A DNA stretch of 10,767 nt from Vulcanimicrobiota bacterium. Its GTDB lineage: Bacteria; Vulcanimicrobiota; Vulcanimicrobiia; Vulcanimicrobiales; Vulcanimicrobiaceae. Numbering within the stretch: the first letter of the stretch is position 1; every line of letters starts with the position of its first letter. The DNA is taken from assembly GCA_003133025.1 (NCBI GenBank), contig PKZK01000157.1, positions 3,252 through 14,018 on the forward strand, in the 5' to 3' direction. Positions 1 through 6,206 of this stretch are shown piece by piece. The notes beneath the pieces were generated by a model. That model ran no database searches. It was not told the origin of the DNA and saw only the letters and a list, made by a program, of their open reading frames with translations. The translations under genes and the position numbers were made by a program.

Positions 1-1109
1 TCGAGGAGGCTGCGGCCCAGCGCCGGCACGCGGCGCAAGCGCTCCGAAACGCGCGTCGAGACGAAGGGCACGTCGAGCATCAGGTCCACCGCGCGGCCCA
101 AGCGGCGACGGCCACGCAACAGGCGCGCGCGGCGCGCCGCATAACCGGCACAGTAGCGCGCTTCGCGCGCCGGATCGGCAAGCGATGCAGCGATCGTCGC
201 GGCGGCGTCGAGCCCGCCACGCAACGCCATGAACACGCCCGAACCCGTGAACGGGTTGAGGAAGCCGCTCGCATCGCCGGCCAACAGCGCACCCGGCGCC
301 GCGGCGGCGATCACGTCGAAGGCCAGGGGACCGATCGCGACGCGCGGACCGACGCGCGCCGCGACGTCGACGCCGCGCACGCCGCGCGCGAGTTGCGCGG
401 CCGTGCCGCGCATGCCCTCGTCGACGGCCGCCGACCACTCGCTCAATTGCGCTTCGCGCACCACGACCATGAGGTTGGCCAGGTCCGGTCCCAGCGGATT
501 GAGCGCGAAATACGCGCCGCCGCCGACGTACATCTCCACCCGCGCGCCGAGATCGCCGAAGCCGCGATAATGTCCGCCGAGCGCAAAGCGCTTCGGCCCG
601 CGCGAGGCGCGAACGAGCCCGAGTTTGCGCGCCGTGAGCGAGCCGCTGCCGTCCGCGCCGACCACGAACCGCGCGCGCAACTCGCGTTCGTCGCCCGCCG
701 GATCGCGCACGCGCACGCCCGCCGCACGGCCTCCGTCGAAGAGGATATCCTCGGCGCGCGCGAGCAGCACGCGGGCTCCGGCGGCGCGCGCGGCGTCGAG
801 CAAAAACGCGTCGAGGTCGGCGCGCGGCAACGAGCGCGCCGGTTCGCTGAAATCGAGTTCGAGCGGCTCGAGGCCGGGCGGCACGAGCCGGATGCCGTTG
901 AGCGGTACGCTTCGCGCGCGCACGCCCTCGCCCAGGCCCGCATCGTCGAGCAGGCGCAGCGCGCCCGCGTTGACGTACTCGCCGCAGGCTTTGGTGCGCG
1001 GAAAGGTCGCGCGCTCGATCACGGTCACCGCGATGCCGCGTCGCGCGAGGCCGAGCGCACAGATCGAGCCGGCCGGGCCGCCGCCGACGACGAGGACCTC
1101 AGAGTCCAT
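1..1109 (-). CDS. FAD-dependent oxidoreductase, geranylgeranyl reductase/FixC-like family (3' partial, runs off window start)
   Basis: Not in the ORF track because there is no stop inside the window. Manual translation from ATG at 1109 gives MDSEVLVVGGGPAGSICALGLARRGIAVTVIERATFPRTKACGEY (GxGxxG Rossmann motif, FPRxKxCG), then RADLDAFLL, FVVGADGSGS and LLAGDASGFLNPFTGSG (second FAD motif). The frame is open for 369 codons to the window edge. The start overlaps the methyltransferase 3' end by 11 nt. Confidence 0.92.
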   Translation of the reverse strand, partial: MDSEVLVVGGGPAGSICALGLARRGIAVTVIERATFPRTKACGEYVNAGALRLLDDAGLGEGVRARSVPLNGIRLVPPGLEPLELDFSEPARSLPRADLDAFLLDAARAAGARVLLARAEDILFDGGRAAGVRVRDPAGDERELRARFVVGADGSGSLTARKLGLVRASRGPKRFALGGHYRGFGDLGARVEMYVGGGAYFALNPLGPDLANLMVVVREAQLSEWSAAVDEGMRGTAAQLARGVRGVDVAARVGPRVAIGPLAFDVIAAAAPGALLAGDASGFLNPFTGSGVFMALRGGLDAAATIAASLADPAREARYCAGYAARRARLLRGRRRLGRAVDLMLDVPFVSTRVSERLRRVPALGRSLL

Positions 1110-1773
1110 CGTGCATCATCATCCGGAAGAACGGCTGCGGAACGGCGCTGGGCAGATTCCAGCCCGCGGAGCGTGCGAGGTCTTCGGCCTCGGCCGGGGT
1201 GTAGGCGCGCTGGACCGAGAGCGGACCGTCGTGACGCGTCAACGGGCTCGTCGCAAAGAGCGCGACGTAGAGGCGTGAAGCGGCGTGCGCGAGCGGCGAG
1301 CGGCTCAGATCGCAAACCAGCGGCGTGACCCGCGCGACGCGCCGCATCTCACGCAGCACCGCGATCGCCTCCTCGGGCTCGAAATGGTGCAGCGCGAGAT
1401 TACAGGTCACGATGTCGAAGCTCGCGTCGGGAAAAGGCAACGACGCGCCGTCGCCGCGGGTGAAGCGCAGCGCCGCATCGCCGTGCGAACGTTGGCGGGC
1501 GATGTCGAGCACGGTCTCGCTGCGATCGAGGCACACGATCTCGAGGCGCCGGCCGCGGCGGCGCGCCTCGGCCAGCAGGGCGCGCGGAATGTCGCCGCTG
1601 CCGCAGCCCACGTCGAGCAGCCACTCCGCCGGCCGCGCGAAGACTTCGCGCAGCACCGGCGCCACGCCGCCGAACCAGCGATTGGCGCGTTCGATGTCGT
1701 CGAAGTTGCGCGCCAATTCGGCCGGATCGACGCGCGGATCGTCCATCAATTCGTCGGCCGTGACGCGCTGCAT
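1099..1773 (-). CDS. Class I SAM-dependent methyltransferase (224 aa)
   Basis: Motif I LLDVGCGSGD, acidic end of strand 2 (CLDRS), and GDGASLPFPDASFDIVTCNLALHHF. The N-terminal ELMDD...NRWFGG and C-terminal HDGPLSVQRAYT resemble the methyltransferase subfamily typically encoded beside FAD oxidoreductases and type III PKS genes. Confidence 0.92.
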   Translation of the reverse strand: MQRVTADELMDDPRVDPAELARNFDDIERANRWFGGVAPVLREVFARPAEWLLDVGCGSGDIPRALLAEARRRGRRLEIVCLDRSETVLDIARQRSHGDAALRFTRGDGASLPFPDASFDIVTCNLALHHFEPEEAIAVLREMRRVARVTPLVCDLSRSPLAHAASRLYVALFATSPLTRHDGPLSVQRAYTPAEAEDLARSAGWNLPSAVPQPFFRMMMHDGL

Positions 1774-1815: not shown

Positions 1816-2061
1816 CTAGACTTTCTTGAAATAGTCCGCGTTGATTTCGATGTAGTTCTTCCACTTGTCCGGAAGATCGGCATCGGCGTAAATCGCTTCG
1901 ACCGGGCAGGCCGAGACGCAGGCGCCGCAGTCGATGCAGACCTCGGGGTCGATGAACAACATCTTGTCGTCATCTTTTCCGTGGATGCAATCGACCGGAC
2001 ACACGTCGACGCACGACTTGTCCTTCGTACCGATACAAGGTTCTGTGATCACGTAGGCCAT
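1816..2061 (-). CDS. fdxA: Dicluster ferredoxin, 7Fe ([3Fe-4S][4Fe-4S]) type, short form (81 aa)
   Basis: [27 protein letters not shown] (C-x7-C-x3-CP) and [21 protein letters not shown] (CxxCxxCxxxCP), the signature of FdxA/Azotobacter FdI-like 7Fe ferredoxins. It lacks the long FdI C-terminal extension. Confidence 0.95.
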
Positions 2062-2241
2062 GGCTTGGCGCTATTGGGGGCGCCCAACGGCCGGTCCTCT
2101 CCGCCGGGGAGCGTTTTCGCACGACTTTTCATGCAGGTGGGAGTCCTGCCGCTGCTGGGAGCGACGGCTTTTGCCGAACACCGGGATAGCATGCCGACGG
2201 CCCCGCTTTCGCGAACGGGTACATATGGTGACCTCGTTCCG
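2062..2241. promoter_or_regulatory. 180-bp divergent intergenic region (ferredoxin / Clp ATPase), expected to hold both promoters
   Basis: The flanking genes diverge. SD-like GGTGA at 2227-2231 lies 10 nt before ATG 2242, and SD-like GGAGAGGA is on the minus strand at 2095-2102. Several short inverted repeats are present. No consensus -35/-10 pair was confidently identified. Confidence 0.55.
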
Positions 2242-4191
2242 ATGACCACGCTCTGCGAAACGTGCGGGCAACGTCCCGCGACCGTTCGAGATTTCACGCT
2301 GCGTTCGGGCTCTTGGGTCGAAGCGGAGGTCTGCGACAGTTGCGCCCGCCGCCGCCGCACCTCGGCGCTGCCCGTCGTGGGCTCGGCGCTGGCCGCCGTG
2401 GCGCTCGCGGTAGGGACCACCTTTGCCATCGACCGCCTGACCCGCAATCCGGAGCGCGAAGCGCAGCCCGGCAGCGATCCGCGCGAGTGGACCAAGCGTC
2501 TGCGCGGCGGCTCGCCCACGCTCGCGGCGTACTCGCGCGATTTGACCGCCGCCGCCCGCAACGGCGAACTCGACCCGGTCATCGGCCGGGACGACGAAAT
2601 CGAACGGGTCATCGCGATCCTGGCGCGGCGCAGCAAGAACAACCCGGTGCTCGTCGGCGAACCCGGCGTGGGCAAGACGGCGGTCGTCGAGGGCTTGGCC
2701 CAACGCATCGCGCGCGGTGAGGTTCCGGCAGTATTACGCGACAAGCGCGTGCTCTCGCTCGCCTTGGGTCCGCTCGTTGCCGGCACCAAGTATCGCGGCG
2801 AATTCGAAGCCCGCGTCAAGCGCATTCTCGACGAGGTGCGGCGGTCGGCGCGCGAGATCGTGCTCTTCATCGACGAACTCCATACGCTGGTCGGCGCCGG
2901 CGCGGCCGAAGGATCGCTCGACCTCTCGTCGATGATCAAGCCGGAACTCGCCCGCGGCGAGTTGCAGTGCATCGGCGCGACCACCTTCGACGAATACCGC
3001 AAGCACATCGAGGCCGACTCCGCACTCGAACGGCGCTTCCAACCCGTGACCGTGGCCGAGCCGACGATCGAGCAGACCGTCGCCATCCTGCGCGGACTCA
3101 GCAGCAAGTACGCCGTGCATCACGGCGTGACGATCGACGACGCGGCGCTCGAGGCGGCCGCATCGCTTGCGGCGCGCTACATCGCCGACCGCTTCTTGCC
3201 CGACAAGGCGATCGATCTGGTCGACGAAGCCGCGGCCTCCGTCGCTTTGCGCGGCGGCGTGTCGGTGAGCGTCGAAGACGTCTCGGGCATCGTCTCCAAG
3301 TGGACCGGCATCCCGCAAGGCTCGCTCGACGAAGCGCAGACGCGCAGTTTGCTGGCGCTCGAGAGCGCGCTCGGCAAGCGGGTCATCGGTCAATCCGAAG
3401 CGATCCGTTCGGTGGCCCAAGCGATCCGGCGCGGCCGGGCCGGCCTCAAGGATCCGCGCAAACCGCTGGGCGGATTCCTCTTCGTGGGCGCGAGCGGCGT
3501 GGGCAAGACCGAACTCGCCAAGGCGCTGGCCGGCGAACTCTTCGGCACCGAGGATGCGATCGTGCGCATCGACCTCAGCGAATACACCGAATCGCACACG
3601 GTCTCGCGTCTGCTCGGCGCGCCGCCGGGATACGCGGGTCACGACGAGCCGGGCCAATTGACCGAGCCCGTGCGCCGCAGGCCGTACTGCGTGGTGCTCT
3701 TCGACGAGTTTGAGAAAGCCCACGGCGACGTGGCCGCGATCCTGTTGCAGATCCTCGACGACGGACGCGTGACCGACTCGAAGGGCCGCACCGTCGACTT
3801 CCGTCACGCGATCGTGATCCTGACCAGCAACGCGGATCCCACCGAACTCGAGATGTTCATCCGGCCCGAGTTGCTCAACCGCATCGACGACATCGTGCGC
3901 TTCCACGACCTCGACCTCAGCGACATCGGCTCGATCGTCGAACTGCAGATGCACGAAGTGGCCAAGCGGCTCGGCGCGTTGCACATCACGATCGCCTTGA
4001 GCGAGCCGGCGCGCGAATTCTTGGCCAAGGAGAGCGTGGCCGCCGGCAGCGGCGCGCGCTACGTCGCGCGGACGATCGCGCGCTTCGTGACCAACCCGCT
4101 CTCGAGCGCCATCCTGCGCGGCGACATCAAAGAAGGCGGCAGCGCCAAGGTCGAGTTGCGCGGCGAGATGATCGACGTGATCGCCGCATGA
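2242..4191 (+). CDS. Atypical class I Clp/Hsp100 AAA+ ATPase (649 aa): ClpE/McsA-like Zn finger + hydrophobic helix + two AAA+ domains, no middle domain, no IGF/L loop
   Basis: NBD1: [22 protein letters not shown], pore loop [43 protein letters not shown]2: [38 protein letters not shown]. Start placed at ATG 2242 (MTTLCETC) because ClpE/McsA-type zinc fingers begin at the N-terminus and an SD-like GGTGA precedes it. The longer 968-aa ORF overlaps real opposite-strand genes. Confidence 0.93.
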
Positions 4192-4751
4192 ACGTCGCGG
4201 CGTTGGGCCTCGCGGCGACGCTGCTCGCCGCGACCGCGCCCGCGGTGCACACGCTGCCCGGCGGCGCGGCGCGCGCGCTCACGGTCGGCTTCGGATTCGT
4301 CACGCTGCACCAAACGCAGACCGCGGGCACGCTCGCCGGCATCGACGTGCACATCGGCGACTTGCCCGGCTGCTATCGGCTCAGTTTCGTGCCCGGCGAC
4401 CCGTCGAAGACCTCGACCGTGCGCATGGCCAAAGGCGGCGACGCGGGAGCGGCCGGCTGTCCCGACGGTCCCGCACCGGAATGGGTCGTGCCCGGCGCAG
4501 AGGCCGAAGCGATTGCCGCCGTGGTGCGGGCGTGGAGCAACGGCGCGCTGCCCGGGGCGCCGAGCCCCGACTTGATTGCCGCCGAGACGTTCTCGGTGAC
4601 GACGAGCGTCGTGCCCGAGGGTTCGAACGCGCCGGAACCCGGCACGATCGAGGTCGGCATCGTGCCCCAGCCCGCCAAGGCGGGCGTGTGCCCCAGATAC
4701 GATTACGATCCTGCGAGCGGCGAAATCGCGAAGCTACCCTCGACCTGCTGA
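4188..4751 (+). CDS. Hypothetical putative secreted protein (187 aa, 4 Cys)
   Basis: ATGA overlap with the Clp stop codon, GC-rich third positions like neighbouring genes, and a hydrophobic N-terminus [19 protein letters not shown] ending in A-x-A (no basic n-region). It fills the gap to the convergent gene. No family recognised with confidence. Confidence 0.75.
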   Translation: MNVAALGLAATLLAATAPAVHTLPGGAARALTVGFGFVTLHQTQTAGTLAGIDVHIGDLPGCYRLSFVPGDPSKTSTVRMAKGGDAGAAGCPDGPAPEWVVPGAEAEAIAAVVRAWSNGALPGAPSPDLIAAETFSVTTSVVPEGSNAPEPGTIEVGIVPQPAKAGVCPRYDYDPASGEIAKLPSTC

Positions 4752-4770: not shown

Positions 4771-5271
4771 CTACTTCTTGACGATTTCCTTGATCGCGTC
4801 TTCGATCTCTTGGTTCGACATCTCGCCTAATCGATAGGTGCTGATCTTGCCGTCGCGAGCGATGAACACGTGTACCGGCAGCGCCAACGTGCCGTACTCC
4901 TTGCCGGTCGAGCCGCTATCGTCGAGCAGCACCGTGAACGGCAGCTTATATTGATCGACGAACGATTTCGCTTTCGCCTCCGGGTCCAACTCGTTGACGC
5001 CCAGCGCGACCAAGCCTTGCGGGTGATACTTCTTGTAGAGCTTGACGATCGAAGGCGCTTCCTCGTTGCACGGGCCGCACCACGACGCGAAGAAGTTCAG
5101 ATAGACGGGTTTGCCCTTGAATGCGGCCAGCGTCTGCGTCTTGCCGCTGCCCAGAATCTTGAGCGAGATCGGCGGCGCGACGTCGCCCGCGCGCGGAACG
5201 GCGAGCGCGGCGAGCGGCAGCGCGGCAACGGCGGCCGCGAACAGCGCGGCTTGGGGCATGCGAGCGGGCAT
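4771..5271 (-). CDS. TlpA/ResA-family thiol-disulfide oxidoreductase with N-terminal export signal (166 aa)
   Basis: GDVAPPISL, FKGKPVYLNFFASWCGPCNEEAP (WCxxC active site), cis-Pro motif ALPVHVFIARDGKI, and hydrophobic leader ALFAAAVAALPLAALA. ATG 5271 was chosen because GAGGAG lies just upstream; GTG 5283 and ATG 5259 are alternatives. Confidence 0.92.
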   Translation of the reverse strand: MPARMPQAALFAAAVAALPLAALAVPRAGDVAPPISLKILGSGKTQTLAAFKGKPVYLNFFASWCGPCNEEAPSIVKLYKKYHPQGLVALGVNELDPEAKAKSFVDQYKLPFTVLLDDSGSTGKEYGTLALPVHVFIARDGKISTYRLGEMSNQEIEDAIKEIVKK

Positions 5272-5279
5272 CGATCTCC

Positions 5280-6206
5280 TCACGAAACGGTGAAGGCGGG
5301 AAAGCGGACGTTACCGGCGTCGTCCTGCATCTGCGCGACCAGTTCCTCGGACGAGCCGAACGCGCGCTGATCGCGAACGAAGGCGAAGTCGCGTAGCGCC
5401 AGTTCTTCGCCGTAGATCGTTTGGCGGAAATCTTGCAGCCACGCTTCGATGGTCTTGGCCCCCGGCCCGAAGGTCGGATTGTCGCCGATCGATACGAGGC
5501 CGCGATAGTCCCGACCGGCATAGCGTCCGGTGGCGGTGTACACGCCTTCCTTGGGCACGAGTTTTCCCGGCGGCACGTCGAGGTTGGCCGTGGGAAAACC
5601 GAGGTCGTGACCGCGCCCGTGTCCGAGCACGACCCGTCCGCGTAGCGCGTAGGGTTCGCACAAGAGCCGGTCGGCCAGAGCGAAATCGCCGCGCTCGATC
5701 GCGGCGCGCACCCGCGTGCTCGAGATGCGCTCGCCGCCTTCGAGCACCGGCGGCACGAAGTGCGCCGTCGCGCCGCGCTCGGCGAGTACGGCGGCAGCGA
5801 GCGCGCTATCGCCGCGACGGCCGGAACCGAAGCGGAAGTTGGCGCCCGTGACGAGCGCGCGCGCGCCCAGGCGGCCGAGCACGATCTCGTCGAGGAACGC
5901 GCGCGCTTCGCAGCCCGCGAGTTCGGCATCGAAGGGCACGAGATAGAGTTCGTCGATGCCCGAGGCCGCGAGCAGGTTGACCCGCTCTTCGGTGGTGGTG
6001 ATCAGCGGCGGTACGCTCTCCGGACGCAAGTGCGTGGCCGGATGATTGCGGAAACTGAGCACGGCGGCGCGATAGCCCGGACGGCGCAAGCGCAAGAGCG
6101 CGCGGACGATCTCGCGGTGGCCGCGGTGGAACCCGTCGAAGAAACCGATGGCCAGGACCAGCGGCCGGTCGGACTCGCGCGGCGTCAGCGCGTGATGGAT
6201 CTTCAC
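5280..6206 (-). CDS. ribF: Bifunctional riboflavin kinase / FMN adenylyltransferase (308 aa)
   Basis: IGFFDGFHRGH (HxGH), GANFRFG, ISSTRVR, GRGHDLGFPTANL, SIGDNPTF. Start GTG at 6206 overlaps the truB stop (GTGA), matching canonical truB-ribF synteny. Confidence 0.96.
   Translation of the reverse strand: MKIHHALTPRESDRPLVLAIGFFDGFHRGHREIVRALLRLRRPGYRAAVLSFRNHPATHLRPESVPPLITTTEERVNLLAASGIDELYLVPFDAELAGCEARAFLDEIVLGRLGARALVTGANFRFGSGRRGDSALAAAVLAERGATAHFVPPVLEGGERISSTRVRAAIERGDFALADRLLCEPYALRGRVVLGHGRGHDLGFPTANLDVPPGKLVPKEGVYTATGRYAGRDYRGLVSIGDNPTFGPGAKTIEAWLQDFRQTIYGEELALRDFAFVRDQRAFGSSEELVAQMQDDAGNVRFPAFTVS

Follow-up and report, generated by a model that had tools for sequence, protein, structure and literature searches.

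The locus described here raises the question of what a Clp/Hsp100 ATPase might do when it lacks the parts through which such motors dock with their partners. Bacterial Clp/Hsp100 proteins are regarded as soluble machines that rely on ClpP or DnaK or, in the cases of ClpG and ClpL, on an aggregate-binding head, and FtsH is the usual bacterial AAA+ player in membrane quality control. The window (the whole stretch of DNA analyzed, 10,767 nucleotides of contig PKZK01000157.1 from a Vulcanimicrobiota bacterium) contains an open frame of 649 residues, stop-free in translation, whose product we refer to as the window Clp (Table 1). Judged by its sequence, the protein belongs to a real Hsp100 subfamily, the window Clp family, which is apparently undescribed. 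The function that we favor, with a probability of about 0.5, is that of an unfoldase that works without partners and is anchored on the cytoplasmic side of the inner membrane, where it would act on envelope proteins in envelope stress.

The hallmarks of class-1 Clp/Hsp100 proteins are all present in the window Clp, with Walker A and B motifs, pore-loop tyrosines, arginine fingers and sensor-2 distributed over both AAA+ modules. In the first module (D1) these are Walker A at residues 139-146, the pore loop KYRG at 183-186, Walker B at 209-212 and the arginine finger at 263-266; in the second (D2) they are Walker A at 416-423, the pore loop GYAG at 463-466, Walker B at 486-489, NRID at 546-549 and GAR at 604-606. 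The original prediction took all motifs of both modules to be intact, which holds as far as their presence goes but not for the D2 pore loop, where GYAG replaces the canonical GYVG. This loop is usually GY[A/S/Q]G in the family, with the valine gone from 134/144 family rows and from 21 of 27 diverse orthologs, compared with none of 38 ClpB and ClpC references. In D1 the two Walker motifs (A and B) and the pore loop are conserved in 144/144 rows. Two of the 27 aligned orthologs come from the unpublished genomes G018 and G030, and no conclusion hangs on these two genomes alone. We note that in f2 and f3, the deeper branches among the three families distinguished here (f1, f2 and f3), D2 has drifted further: among L019-L028 the sensor-1 asparagine is changed to histidine in f2 and some f3 members, and the Walker B2 glutamate to aspartate in 3/5 f3 orthologs, a pattern that suggests a weakened second ring.

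Pfam recognizes AAA, AAA_lid_9, AAA_2 and ClpB_D2-small domains in the window Clp, with neither Clp_N nor UVR among the best 25 of its 44 matches and no Clp_N score for residues 1-90. None of the NCBIfam Clp classes reaches its cut-off: the protein scores 803 of the 1232 bits required for ClpB (TIGR03346), 676 of 993 for ClpA (TIGR02639), 654 of 885 for ClpV and 624 of 1900 for ClpG. An AlphaFold model (mean predicted local distance difference test score 80) has ClpC and ClpB hexamer subunits as its best structural matches, and the whole protein falls among generic Clp clusters of the ESM Atlas. By analogy with these relatives, the window Clp probably forms a hexamer and threads its substrate.

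The absent parts can be located by measuring between fixed anchors, P320-G356 for the middle domain (M-domain) and T528-R547 for the ClpP-docking loop (window Clp numbering). The first junction is 36 residues long in the window Clp, compared with 97-100 in ClpC (99-100 in ClpC of the relatives), 157-169 in ClpB, 97 in ClpG/ClpK, 88 in ClpL, 148-167 in ClpV and 40 in Escherichia coli ClpA. The second is 19 residues, compared with 47-53 in ClpC (51-52, with IGF, in that of the relatives), 39 in ClpA (with IGL) and 37-46 in ClpB. The alignment with Staphylococcus aureus ClpC breaks at query position 339, where about 60 ClpC residues corresponding to the M-domain are skipped, and again at 535-537, where about 25 residues of the ClpP loop are skipped; that with E. 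coli ClpA has a 20-residue gap at the ClpP loop. Across the family alignment, whose rows are partly redundant, the M site occupies 24-29 residues in 148/148 rows and the loop 23 or 27 residues in 145/145 measurable rows, from all of which an IGF-like motif is absent. The domain matches and the anchor distances thus bear out the earlier description of a 649-residue protein with no Clp_N domain, M-domain or IGF/L loop.

Two deletions relative to ClpC, in a genome whose assembly is 80% complete, might be put down to a decayed ClpC duplicate or to an assembly artefact, an explanation with virtually no probability left once conservation is considered: the junctions are constant in the row counts given above, and the protein is conserved across a class. 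With a profile of the N-terminal 92 residues, 112 of the 121 genomes searched give one match each; all belong to the class, which we infer from the labels of homologs to be Vulcanimicrobiia/Eremiobacteria, a group of soil bacteria; the database homologs are labelled Vulcanimicrobiaceae and Candidatus Eremiobacteraeota. The one-copy matches comprise 98/99 genomes of family f1, 3/3 of f2, 10/18 of f3 and the genome of the window. Searches with the whole protein score above the ClpC level in 80/81 f1, 2/2 f2 and 7/10 f3 genomes. In 57 genomes of other classes, which were searched with the whole protein and not with the N-terminal profile, the best matches listed begin at query position 63 at the earliest. 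The ratio of nonsynonymous to synonymous substitution rates (dN/dS) is well below 1 for both D1 and D2 in 5/5 pairs. Contig pieces from RNA runs are short, mostly 90-95% alike and stacked on conserved Clp motifs, and leave the family-specific head almost uncovered.

The window Clp is a third class-1 Clp beside the canonical proteins. Its genome encodes a ClpC with M-domain and IGF motif (C187, containing an N gap), the beginning of a ClpB where contig C218 ends, and clpP (C19), and the relatives have full ClpC and ClpB frames besides the window Clp ortholog (15 frames inspected), so that separate clpB and clpC genes, whose presence the original prediction had proposed to check, are found in complete form in the relatives and in part in the window's own genome. 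In a tree of 49 AAA cores (drawn from 99 aligned rows, with one row each for ClpA, ClpE and ClpL) the window Clp family forms one clade (99/99), which shares a polytomy with the groups of ClpB and ClpC and lies apart from the host-ClpC branch (97/92), ClpE plus ClpL (100/96) and ClpG plus ClpK (100/100); three further trees are similar. The proposal of a candidate Hsp100 subfamily with a layout common to its homologs is upheld by the single copy, the constant junctions and the separate clade, with homologs that lie outside the characterized families and deletions that are shared class-wide rather than private. The proposed derivation from ClpC/ClpE is not supported, the family lying in the polytomy with ClpB and ClpC and apart from the ClpE plus ClpL branch.

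The combination of features was also said to match no known class. This is right for the N-terminal module, which is distinctive, but the absence of M-domain and IGF/L loop recurs elsewhere: other classes of the phylum have a separate clade of Clp_N-headed proteins that lack both, and so do two Clps encoded on plasmids. The former (L061-L080 and L097) is the third Clp of those classes and comprises 21 M-less proteins, often with long Pro/Gln-rich tails, of which 20 have no IGF-like motif and one has LGL; the loop of L063 is also 19 residues long. They share with the window Clp the missing M-domain and loop, but differ in their Clp_N heads, in their separate branch and in a canonical GY[V/I]G pore loop (21/21), and we reject orthology because the two groups are not joined in any of four trees. 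The plasmid proteins likewise branch separately. L181 (4980-6773) encodes a 597-residue Clp with no N-domain, M-domain or IGF motif, even more minimal than the window Clp; the gene lies on a conjugative plasmid of Levilactobacillus, flanked by a topoisomerase gene and a sortase region, with similar single-piece matches on further Lactobacillales plasmids; L182 is a Clostridium plasmid protein that is M-less and IGF-less too. No published description of the Clp_N-headed M-less proteins or of the two plasmid Clps was found in the literature searched. Other M-less Clps of the phylum's other classes (L093-L096) have LGL or IGI loops and Clp_N-like heads, a ClpA-like layout, and are distant from E. 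coli ClpA in a FastTree analysis.

The distinctive N-terminal module begins with a zinc-finger head. Its cysteines (C5, C8, C31 and C34) are invariant in 27/27 orthologs, and 17 database homologs that appear to be without them begin at an internal methionine after the first CxxC, which we take to reflect late start calls. Profile searches match the head to McsA (8wtb, E=1.3e-4), the ClpE N-domain (29hb, E=0.04, a weak value with all four cysteines aligned) and ClpG/ClpK N1 (8p66, E=0.07). It is modelled as a beta-hairpin plus helix, for which the top Foldseek row is again 8p66 (E=0.09); a wide fold search gives nothing at Z of 5 or above, with 8p66 at 4.0 and the Lsr2 dimerisation domain at 4.9. 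These scores are singly weak but mutually consistent, and they agree in making the head a probable homologue of the McsA/ClpE-N/ClpG-N1 finger, domains that are reported to be homologous to one another (PMC10641755). Of 84 matches among 1.84 billion representatives, 33 are by eye family members or fragments and 51 cover the finger only or a low-complexity helix only, and none of the 84 places the finger plus helix unit on another kind of protein. In the ESM Atlas the head falls in three unnamed clusters at 0.81-0.82. A complex prediction with three copies of the N-terminal region plus zinc scored 0.01 and is not used as evidence.

Homology of the head to ClpG N1 and the ClpE N-domain, together with the missing ClpP loop as in ClpG and ClpL, invites the alternative that the window Clp is a soluble stand-alone disaggregase of the ClpG/ClpL kind, a natural "N1 + D1 + D2" minimal ClpG in which the hydrophobic helix that follows the finger is a sticky tentacle held on aggregates by avidity. 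ClpG is reported to need only N1, since loss of N2, the M-domain or the C-terminal extension leaves its activity (PMC8024975), and in ClpE a Phe-rich hydrophobic stretch in the corresponding position, directly behind the zinc core, is described as binding soluble aggregates and as crucial for targeting (PMC13125188). Yet the residues through which ClpG binds aggregates, V17 and L21, both described as crucial (PMC10641755), are D17 and R21 in the window Clp when the sequences are anchored on the common PAT motif. Position 17 is aspartate in 21/27 orthologs and position 21 arginine or lysine in 14 of 17 full-length hairpins, the hairpin being shortened in 10/27; by comparison, 14 of 17 hand-picked McsA-like fingers have Ile, Leu, Val or Met at position 17. 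On this alignment the family has retained the zinc site and lost the ClpG-type aggregate patch. Moreover, ClpL and ClpE are described as using short aromatic patches (PMC11006417, PMC13125188), whereas the window Clp family has a long uncharged Ala/Gly/Leu run of transmembrane-level hydrophobicity; the D2 pore loop, the main threading motor of ClpG, is without valine in most orthologs; and the promoter is of a stress-sigma type (below) in hosts that retain ClpB. We regard a soluble disaggregase as somewhat unlikely, though it is the main rival to the membrane-tethered unfoldase.

The helix itself is the second part of the module. Its uncharged run is present in 27/27 orthologs with a median length of 23 residues (19-25 in 25/27 and 40 in two). 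The maximum Kyte-Doolittle average over 19 residues is 2.08 in the window Clp and 1.72-2.33 across the 27 orthologs, and of 86 soluble proteins encoded next to the gene in these loci just one attains 1.72. Insertion energies, estimated with values of the Hessa scale and a weighting of our own, are -0.22 to 1.74 for the helix; six transmembrane segments of MarC give -0.49 to 2.8, and the best of the soluble controls gives 1.86. By these measures its hydrophobicity matches that of true transmembrane segments. The helix is also under purifying selection, with dN/dS of 0.04-0.18 in 5/5 pairs, below the adjacent linker in each. A resemblance to DUF2076 was considered and is treated as compositional: 4/27 members match below the cut-off (best E=0.0014), a profile of the helix lists neither of two DUF2076 proteins, and a search of 41 genomes of the class found no DUF2076 member. 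A signal peptide was likewise rejected, no conserved twin-arginine or A-x-A site being visible by eye in the ortholog alignment.

That the helix is a true single span is very unlikely, although its length and hydrophobicity fit one. With the N-terminus outside, the zinc finger could be a periplasmic redox or metal sensor, but this would expose a Cys4 site to oxidising conditions, would run counter to the charge bias and would have to be achieved with no signal peptide; with the N-terminus inside, as the positive-inside bias favors, an ATPase with invariant D1 Walker motifs would be exported to a compartment thought to be free of ATP. Since the finger and the ATPase would both need the cytoplasm, the helix would lie in one leaflet or pair with an exposed transmembrane segment, rather than spanning the bilayer.

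Conservation of the helix is position-specific and goes beyond hydrophobicity, with G58 in 27/27 orthologs, G47 and A49 in 25/27 each and D/E64 in 26/27, and small residues fixed at positions 47-49, 52, 54 and 58. This would suit a dedicated remodeller in the manner of ClpV, in which the small-residue face of the helix (G47, A51/A52, A54 and G58) docks one membrane complex or adaptor and the motor disassembles or feeds that target only. The strict single copy and narrow range are consistent with such specialization, as are the substitutions in the D2 pore loop and, in f2/f3, those at sensor-1 and Walker B2. However, small-residue stripes are ordinary in transmembrane helices too, no candidate partner is co-located, and the neighbours in f1 and f2 differ from those in f3; we consider a dedicated remodeller unlikely.

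A possible link to envelope stress comes from the promoter region. Upstream of the gene in f1, 8-12 nucleotides before the ATG, is a motif GAAAC-N16/17-xGTA, present in strict form in 15/18 loci and with one mismatch in two more; in shuffled controls the count has a mean of 0.04 and a maximum of 2 in 500. The same motif precedes a SigW/RpoE-like extracytoplasmic function (ECF) sigma gene in 16/20 orthologs and yccA (Bax1-I) in 11/24 (in these counts one row each for Clp, sigma and yccA comes from G018). The Clp and yccA sites are mostly GGTA and the sigma gene's own site is CGTA. TGAAAC/CGTA is described as the signature of Bacillus subtilis sigmaW, whose regulon responds to membrane-active agents (PMC5758882). 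In 14 of the 15 sigma loci checked, a second copy of the motif has the opposite orientation, directed away from the sigma gene, and in genome G000 a DUF6249 gene lies there. The sigma locus (G000:C112:20340-22100, L269, with orthologs L283-L302) consists of the ECF sigma gene, a small gene for a membrane anti-sigma-like protein and the divergent DUF6249 gene, and its back-to-back GAAAC-N16/17-CGTA promoters are conserved across f1. In G000 a gene start lies 6-14 nucleotides downstream of 9/110 motif hits compared with 11/638 control hits (p ~0.001); the candidates include Bax1-I/YccA, TPM, DUF4126, DUF2807 and an aspartyl protease. Among other motif-bearing genes of the relatives (L261, L264 and L265 in G013; L241 in G005) are those for small membrane proteins, namely PLDc_N, a 62-residue protein whose gene bears the motif in G000:C92 too and a 71-residue protein with a Gly-rich hydrophobic helix, and one for an unannotated protein of 330 residues. 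For the controlling inverted repeat of chaperone expression (CIRCE), G000 has no exact site and a single lax one, and the 15 clpB or clpC starts of the relatives have none upstream.

A plausible scenario is that the hydrophobic helix holds the window Clp at the inner face of the membrane, where the motor would exert a pull on envelope proteins that are misfolded or mistargeted when the envelope is under stress. Independence of ClpP and DnaK is inferred because the docking parts are missing: without an M-domain there would be neither DnaK binding nor repression of the ClpB/ClpC type, and without the IGF/L loop no ClpP docking, so that substrates would be released rather than degraded. That a motor of this kind can work alone, but needs some other brake, follows from three sets of experiments on other Clps: ClpG engineered without its M-domain still disaggregates, and N1 fused to derepressed ClpB acts autonomously (PMC8024975); mutants in the M-domain of ClpC required ClpP for their toxicity in E. 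coli (PMC5699869); and ClpL M-domain mutants are toxic though a ClpP motif is absent (PMC11006417). Candidate brakes in the window Clp are confinement by the helix, stress-dependent expression and the Val-less D2 pore loop. Six helices per ring could provide both avidity and confinement of an unrepressed motor, and the missing ClpP loop together with the smaller pore-loop residue could limit collateral damage. Loss of the GYVG valine may weaken the grip on the substrate.

A more specific version of the membrane-tethered unfoldase is possible, though we offer it tentatively: an analogue of Msp1/ATAD1 built from a Clp motor, which would extract damaged or mistargeted membrane proteins from the inner leaflet without ClpP or DnaK. 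Its expression would be induced by the envelope-stress ECF sigma together with that of the FtsH modulator YccA, and its substrates would be recognized by a helix that mimics a transmembrane segment.

Several observations weigh against membrane tethering in envelope stress. The flanking charge of the helix (+2.4 before and +0.3 after) gives it the look of an ordinary N-in/C-out signal anchor and not of a re-entrant segment; as a full span in that orientation it would export the ATPase, and in reverse the Cys4 zinc site. The helix is modelled by AlphaFold at low confidence, and the Phe-rich stretch of ClpE provides a precedent for aggregate binding from the same position. The promoter motif was derived from the Clp upstream regions themselves, which makes the count of 15/18 partly circular; 0/5 f2 and 0/5 f3 loci have it at the gene start, and the window's own copy has no GAAAC -35 box, so that the regulon link is not universal in the family. 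Membrane proteins are not significantly enriched among the nine G000 motif genes (5/9 compared with 930/3052, p=0.11), and no conserved membrane or dedicated partner gene lies beside the Clp gene in the f1, f2 and f3 loci compared. The range of the family is also narrow. The earlier suggestion that the protein possibly works at the membrane gains from the hydrophobicity of the helix and the sigmaW-like promoter of the relatives, but a simple single-span anchor is topologically awkward.

Table 1. Features of the window Clp gene and its surroundings, in window coordinates.
Feature	Position	Strand	Remarks
Gene for the window Clp (649-residue class-1 Clp/Hsp100 ATPase)	2242..4191	+	Zn finger, hydrophobic helix, D1, D2
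Putative Cys4 zinc finger (C5, C8, C31, C34), McsA/ClpE-N/ClpG-N1 type	2254..2343	+	Profile and fold matches
24-residue uncharged Ala/Gly/Leu helix, residues 40-63	2359..2430	+	Preceded by basic residues; closed by D/E and then R/K
Basic amphipathic helix, residues 80-88, just ahead of D1	2479..2505	+	In families f1 and f2; not in f3
D1 catalytic block	2656..3039	+	Walker A 2656-2679, pore loop KYRG 2788-2799, Walker B 2866-2877, Arg finger 3028-3039
D1-D2 junction without coiled-coil M-domain	3226..3282	+	About 60 residues shorter than ClpC
D2 block	3487..3708	+	Walker A 3487-3510, pore loop GYAG 3628-3639, Walker B 3697-3708
19-residue segment in place of the IGF/L ClpP-docking loop, then D2 Arg finger	3823..3888	+	
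Sensor-2 GAR	4051..4059	+	Motif
GGGTAC, possible remnant -10 box of ECF-type promoter	2217..2222	+	-35 box missing; longer spacing to ATG than in relatives
Divergent 4Fe-4S ferredoxin gene	1816..2061	-	Conserved neighbour in 17/17 f1/f2 loci, 0/3 f3 loci
187-residue open reading frame, signal-peptide-like start, four Cys	4188..4751	+	ATGA overlap with Clp stop; lineage-restricted
TlpA/ResA-like redoxin, end of convergent infB-rbfA-DHH-truB-ribF string	4771..5283	-	Neighbour in 17/17 f1/f2 loci

Among the genes surrounding the window Clp, the 187-residue frame, which is translationally coupled to the Clp gene, was considered as a partner and rejected: it is found in 0/20 related loci and has two database homologs only. 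Upstream of the Clp gene in f1 and f2 are genes for SIMPL proteins (10/17) and transglycosylase-associated proteins of the GlsB/YeaQ type (8/17), scored by eye with two of each confirmed by Pfam, and three f3 loci have other neighbours (NUDIX, Lon-N, IscX and YciI). Behind the ferredoxin gene, positions 1-1773 (- strand) encode an oxidoreductase dependent on flavin adenine dinucleotide and an S-adenosylmethionine methyltransferase, followed in relatives by an SRPBCC/cyclase-like gene (L032, L033 and L038; by eye), possibly a small tailoring cassette. A role in phage defence was also rejected, there being only partial D1- or D2-ring matches to DolB, PDC-M37B and others in a housekeeping context.

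Members of the family are named "ClpC" (Joint Genome Institute) or generic Clp (NCBI) in existing databases. No description of the family, and no paper combining Eremiobacterota, Clp and chaperone, was found in the full-text literature searched, outside which fall most subscription journals and the supplements of large Clp surveys that might list members. If the membrane-tethered unfoldase is real, the reach of Clp/Hsp100 proteins would extend to membrane quality control. Even as a disaggregase the window Clp would be a natural minimal unfoldase and a test of how an M-less motor stays safe, and the family asks whether loss of the ClpP loop and pore-loop valine can substitute for M-domain repression. 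The conserved promoter is a first handle on an ECF regulon of a mostly uncultured class.

Comparison with known systems places the window Clp between several of them. ClpG and ClpK (NF033607 and NF033606; N1 structure 8p66) share the homologous zinc N1 head, two AAA+ rings and the lack of a ClpP loop, but have an N2 (Clp_N) domain, an M-domain and an added stretch at the C-terminus, none of which is present in the window Clp. Their finger is Cys3His with V17/L21 whereas that of the window Clp is Cys4 with D/R, followed by the transmembrane-like helix, and the clades are separate; the window Clp gene occurs once per genome in a syntenic setting, in contrast to ClpK, for which the records found were plasmid-borne. 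ClpE (PDB 29hb) is similarly described as having a Cys4 finger directly before D1, no Clp_N and a hydrophobic element after the zinc core (PMC13125188), but has an M-domain, a VGF ClpP loop and a protease partner, and its one row groups with ClpL and not with the window Clp family. E. coli ClpA (b0882) is M-less, with a junction of nearly the same length, but carries Clp_N and an IGL loop and is 43% identical to the window Clp, which falls below its TIGR02639 cut-off. The nearest motors by identity are the hosts' own ClpB and ClpC (65-67% in D1 and 51-53% in D2), which are encoded by separate genes and have Clp_N and M-domains in both and IGF in ClpC; ClpB resembles the window Clp in having no ClpP loop but has a long two-wing M-domain.

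ClpL (PMC11006417) and ClpIb of Actinomycetota (PMC10149685) are described as independent unfoldases without a ClpP motif, ClpIb having a very short loop at the LGF site. Both differ in keeping an M-domain of ClpC length; the head is aromatic and N/Q-rich in ClpL and of Clp_N type in ClpI, and no zinc finger or hydrophobic helix is described for either in the accessible text of these two papers. ClpI is the nearest described "third class", and it keeps Clp_N and the M-domain (PMC10149685). L334 (G181:C46), the third Clp of an actinobacterium, has an extended Clp_N head and lacks an LGF motif; taken as ClpI-like and not a named ClpI, it groups with ClpG/ClpK (99/98) and not with the window Clp family, which hints that ClpI-like proteins and ClpG may be linked. 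ClpV/TssH proteins differ in a long M region and a type VI secretion gene context, neither of which is found at the window Clp. Parallels to the proposed function lie outside the Clp proteins: the extractase Msp1/ATAD1 and spastin M1 are AAA+ motors without a protease partner that are targeted to membranes by an N-terminal hydrophobic segment. These are eukaryotic proteins with a single AAA ring from other AAA+ clades, and the likeness to the window Clp would be one of functional analogy only.

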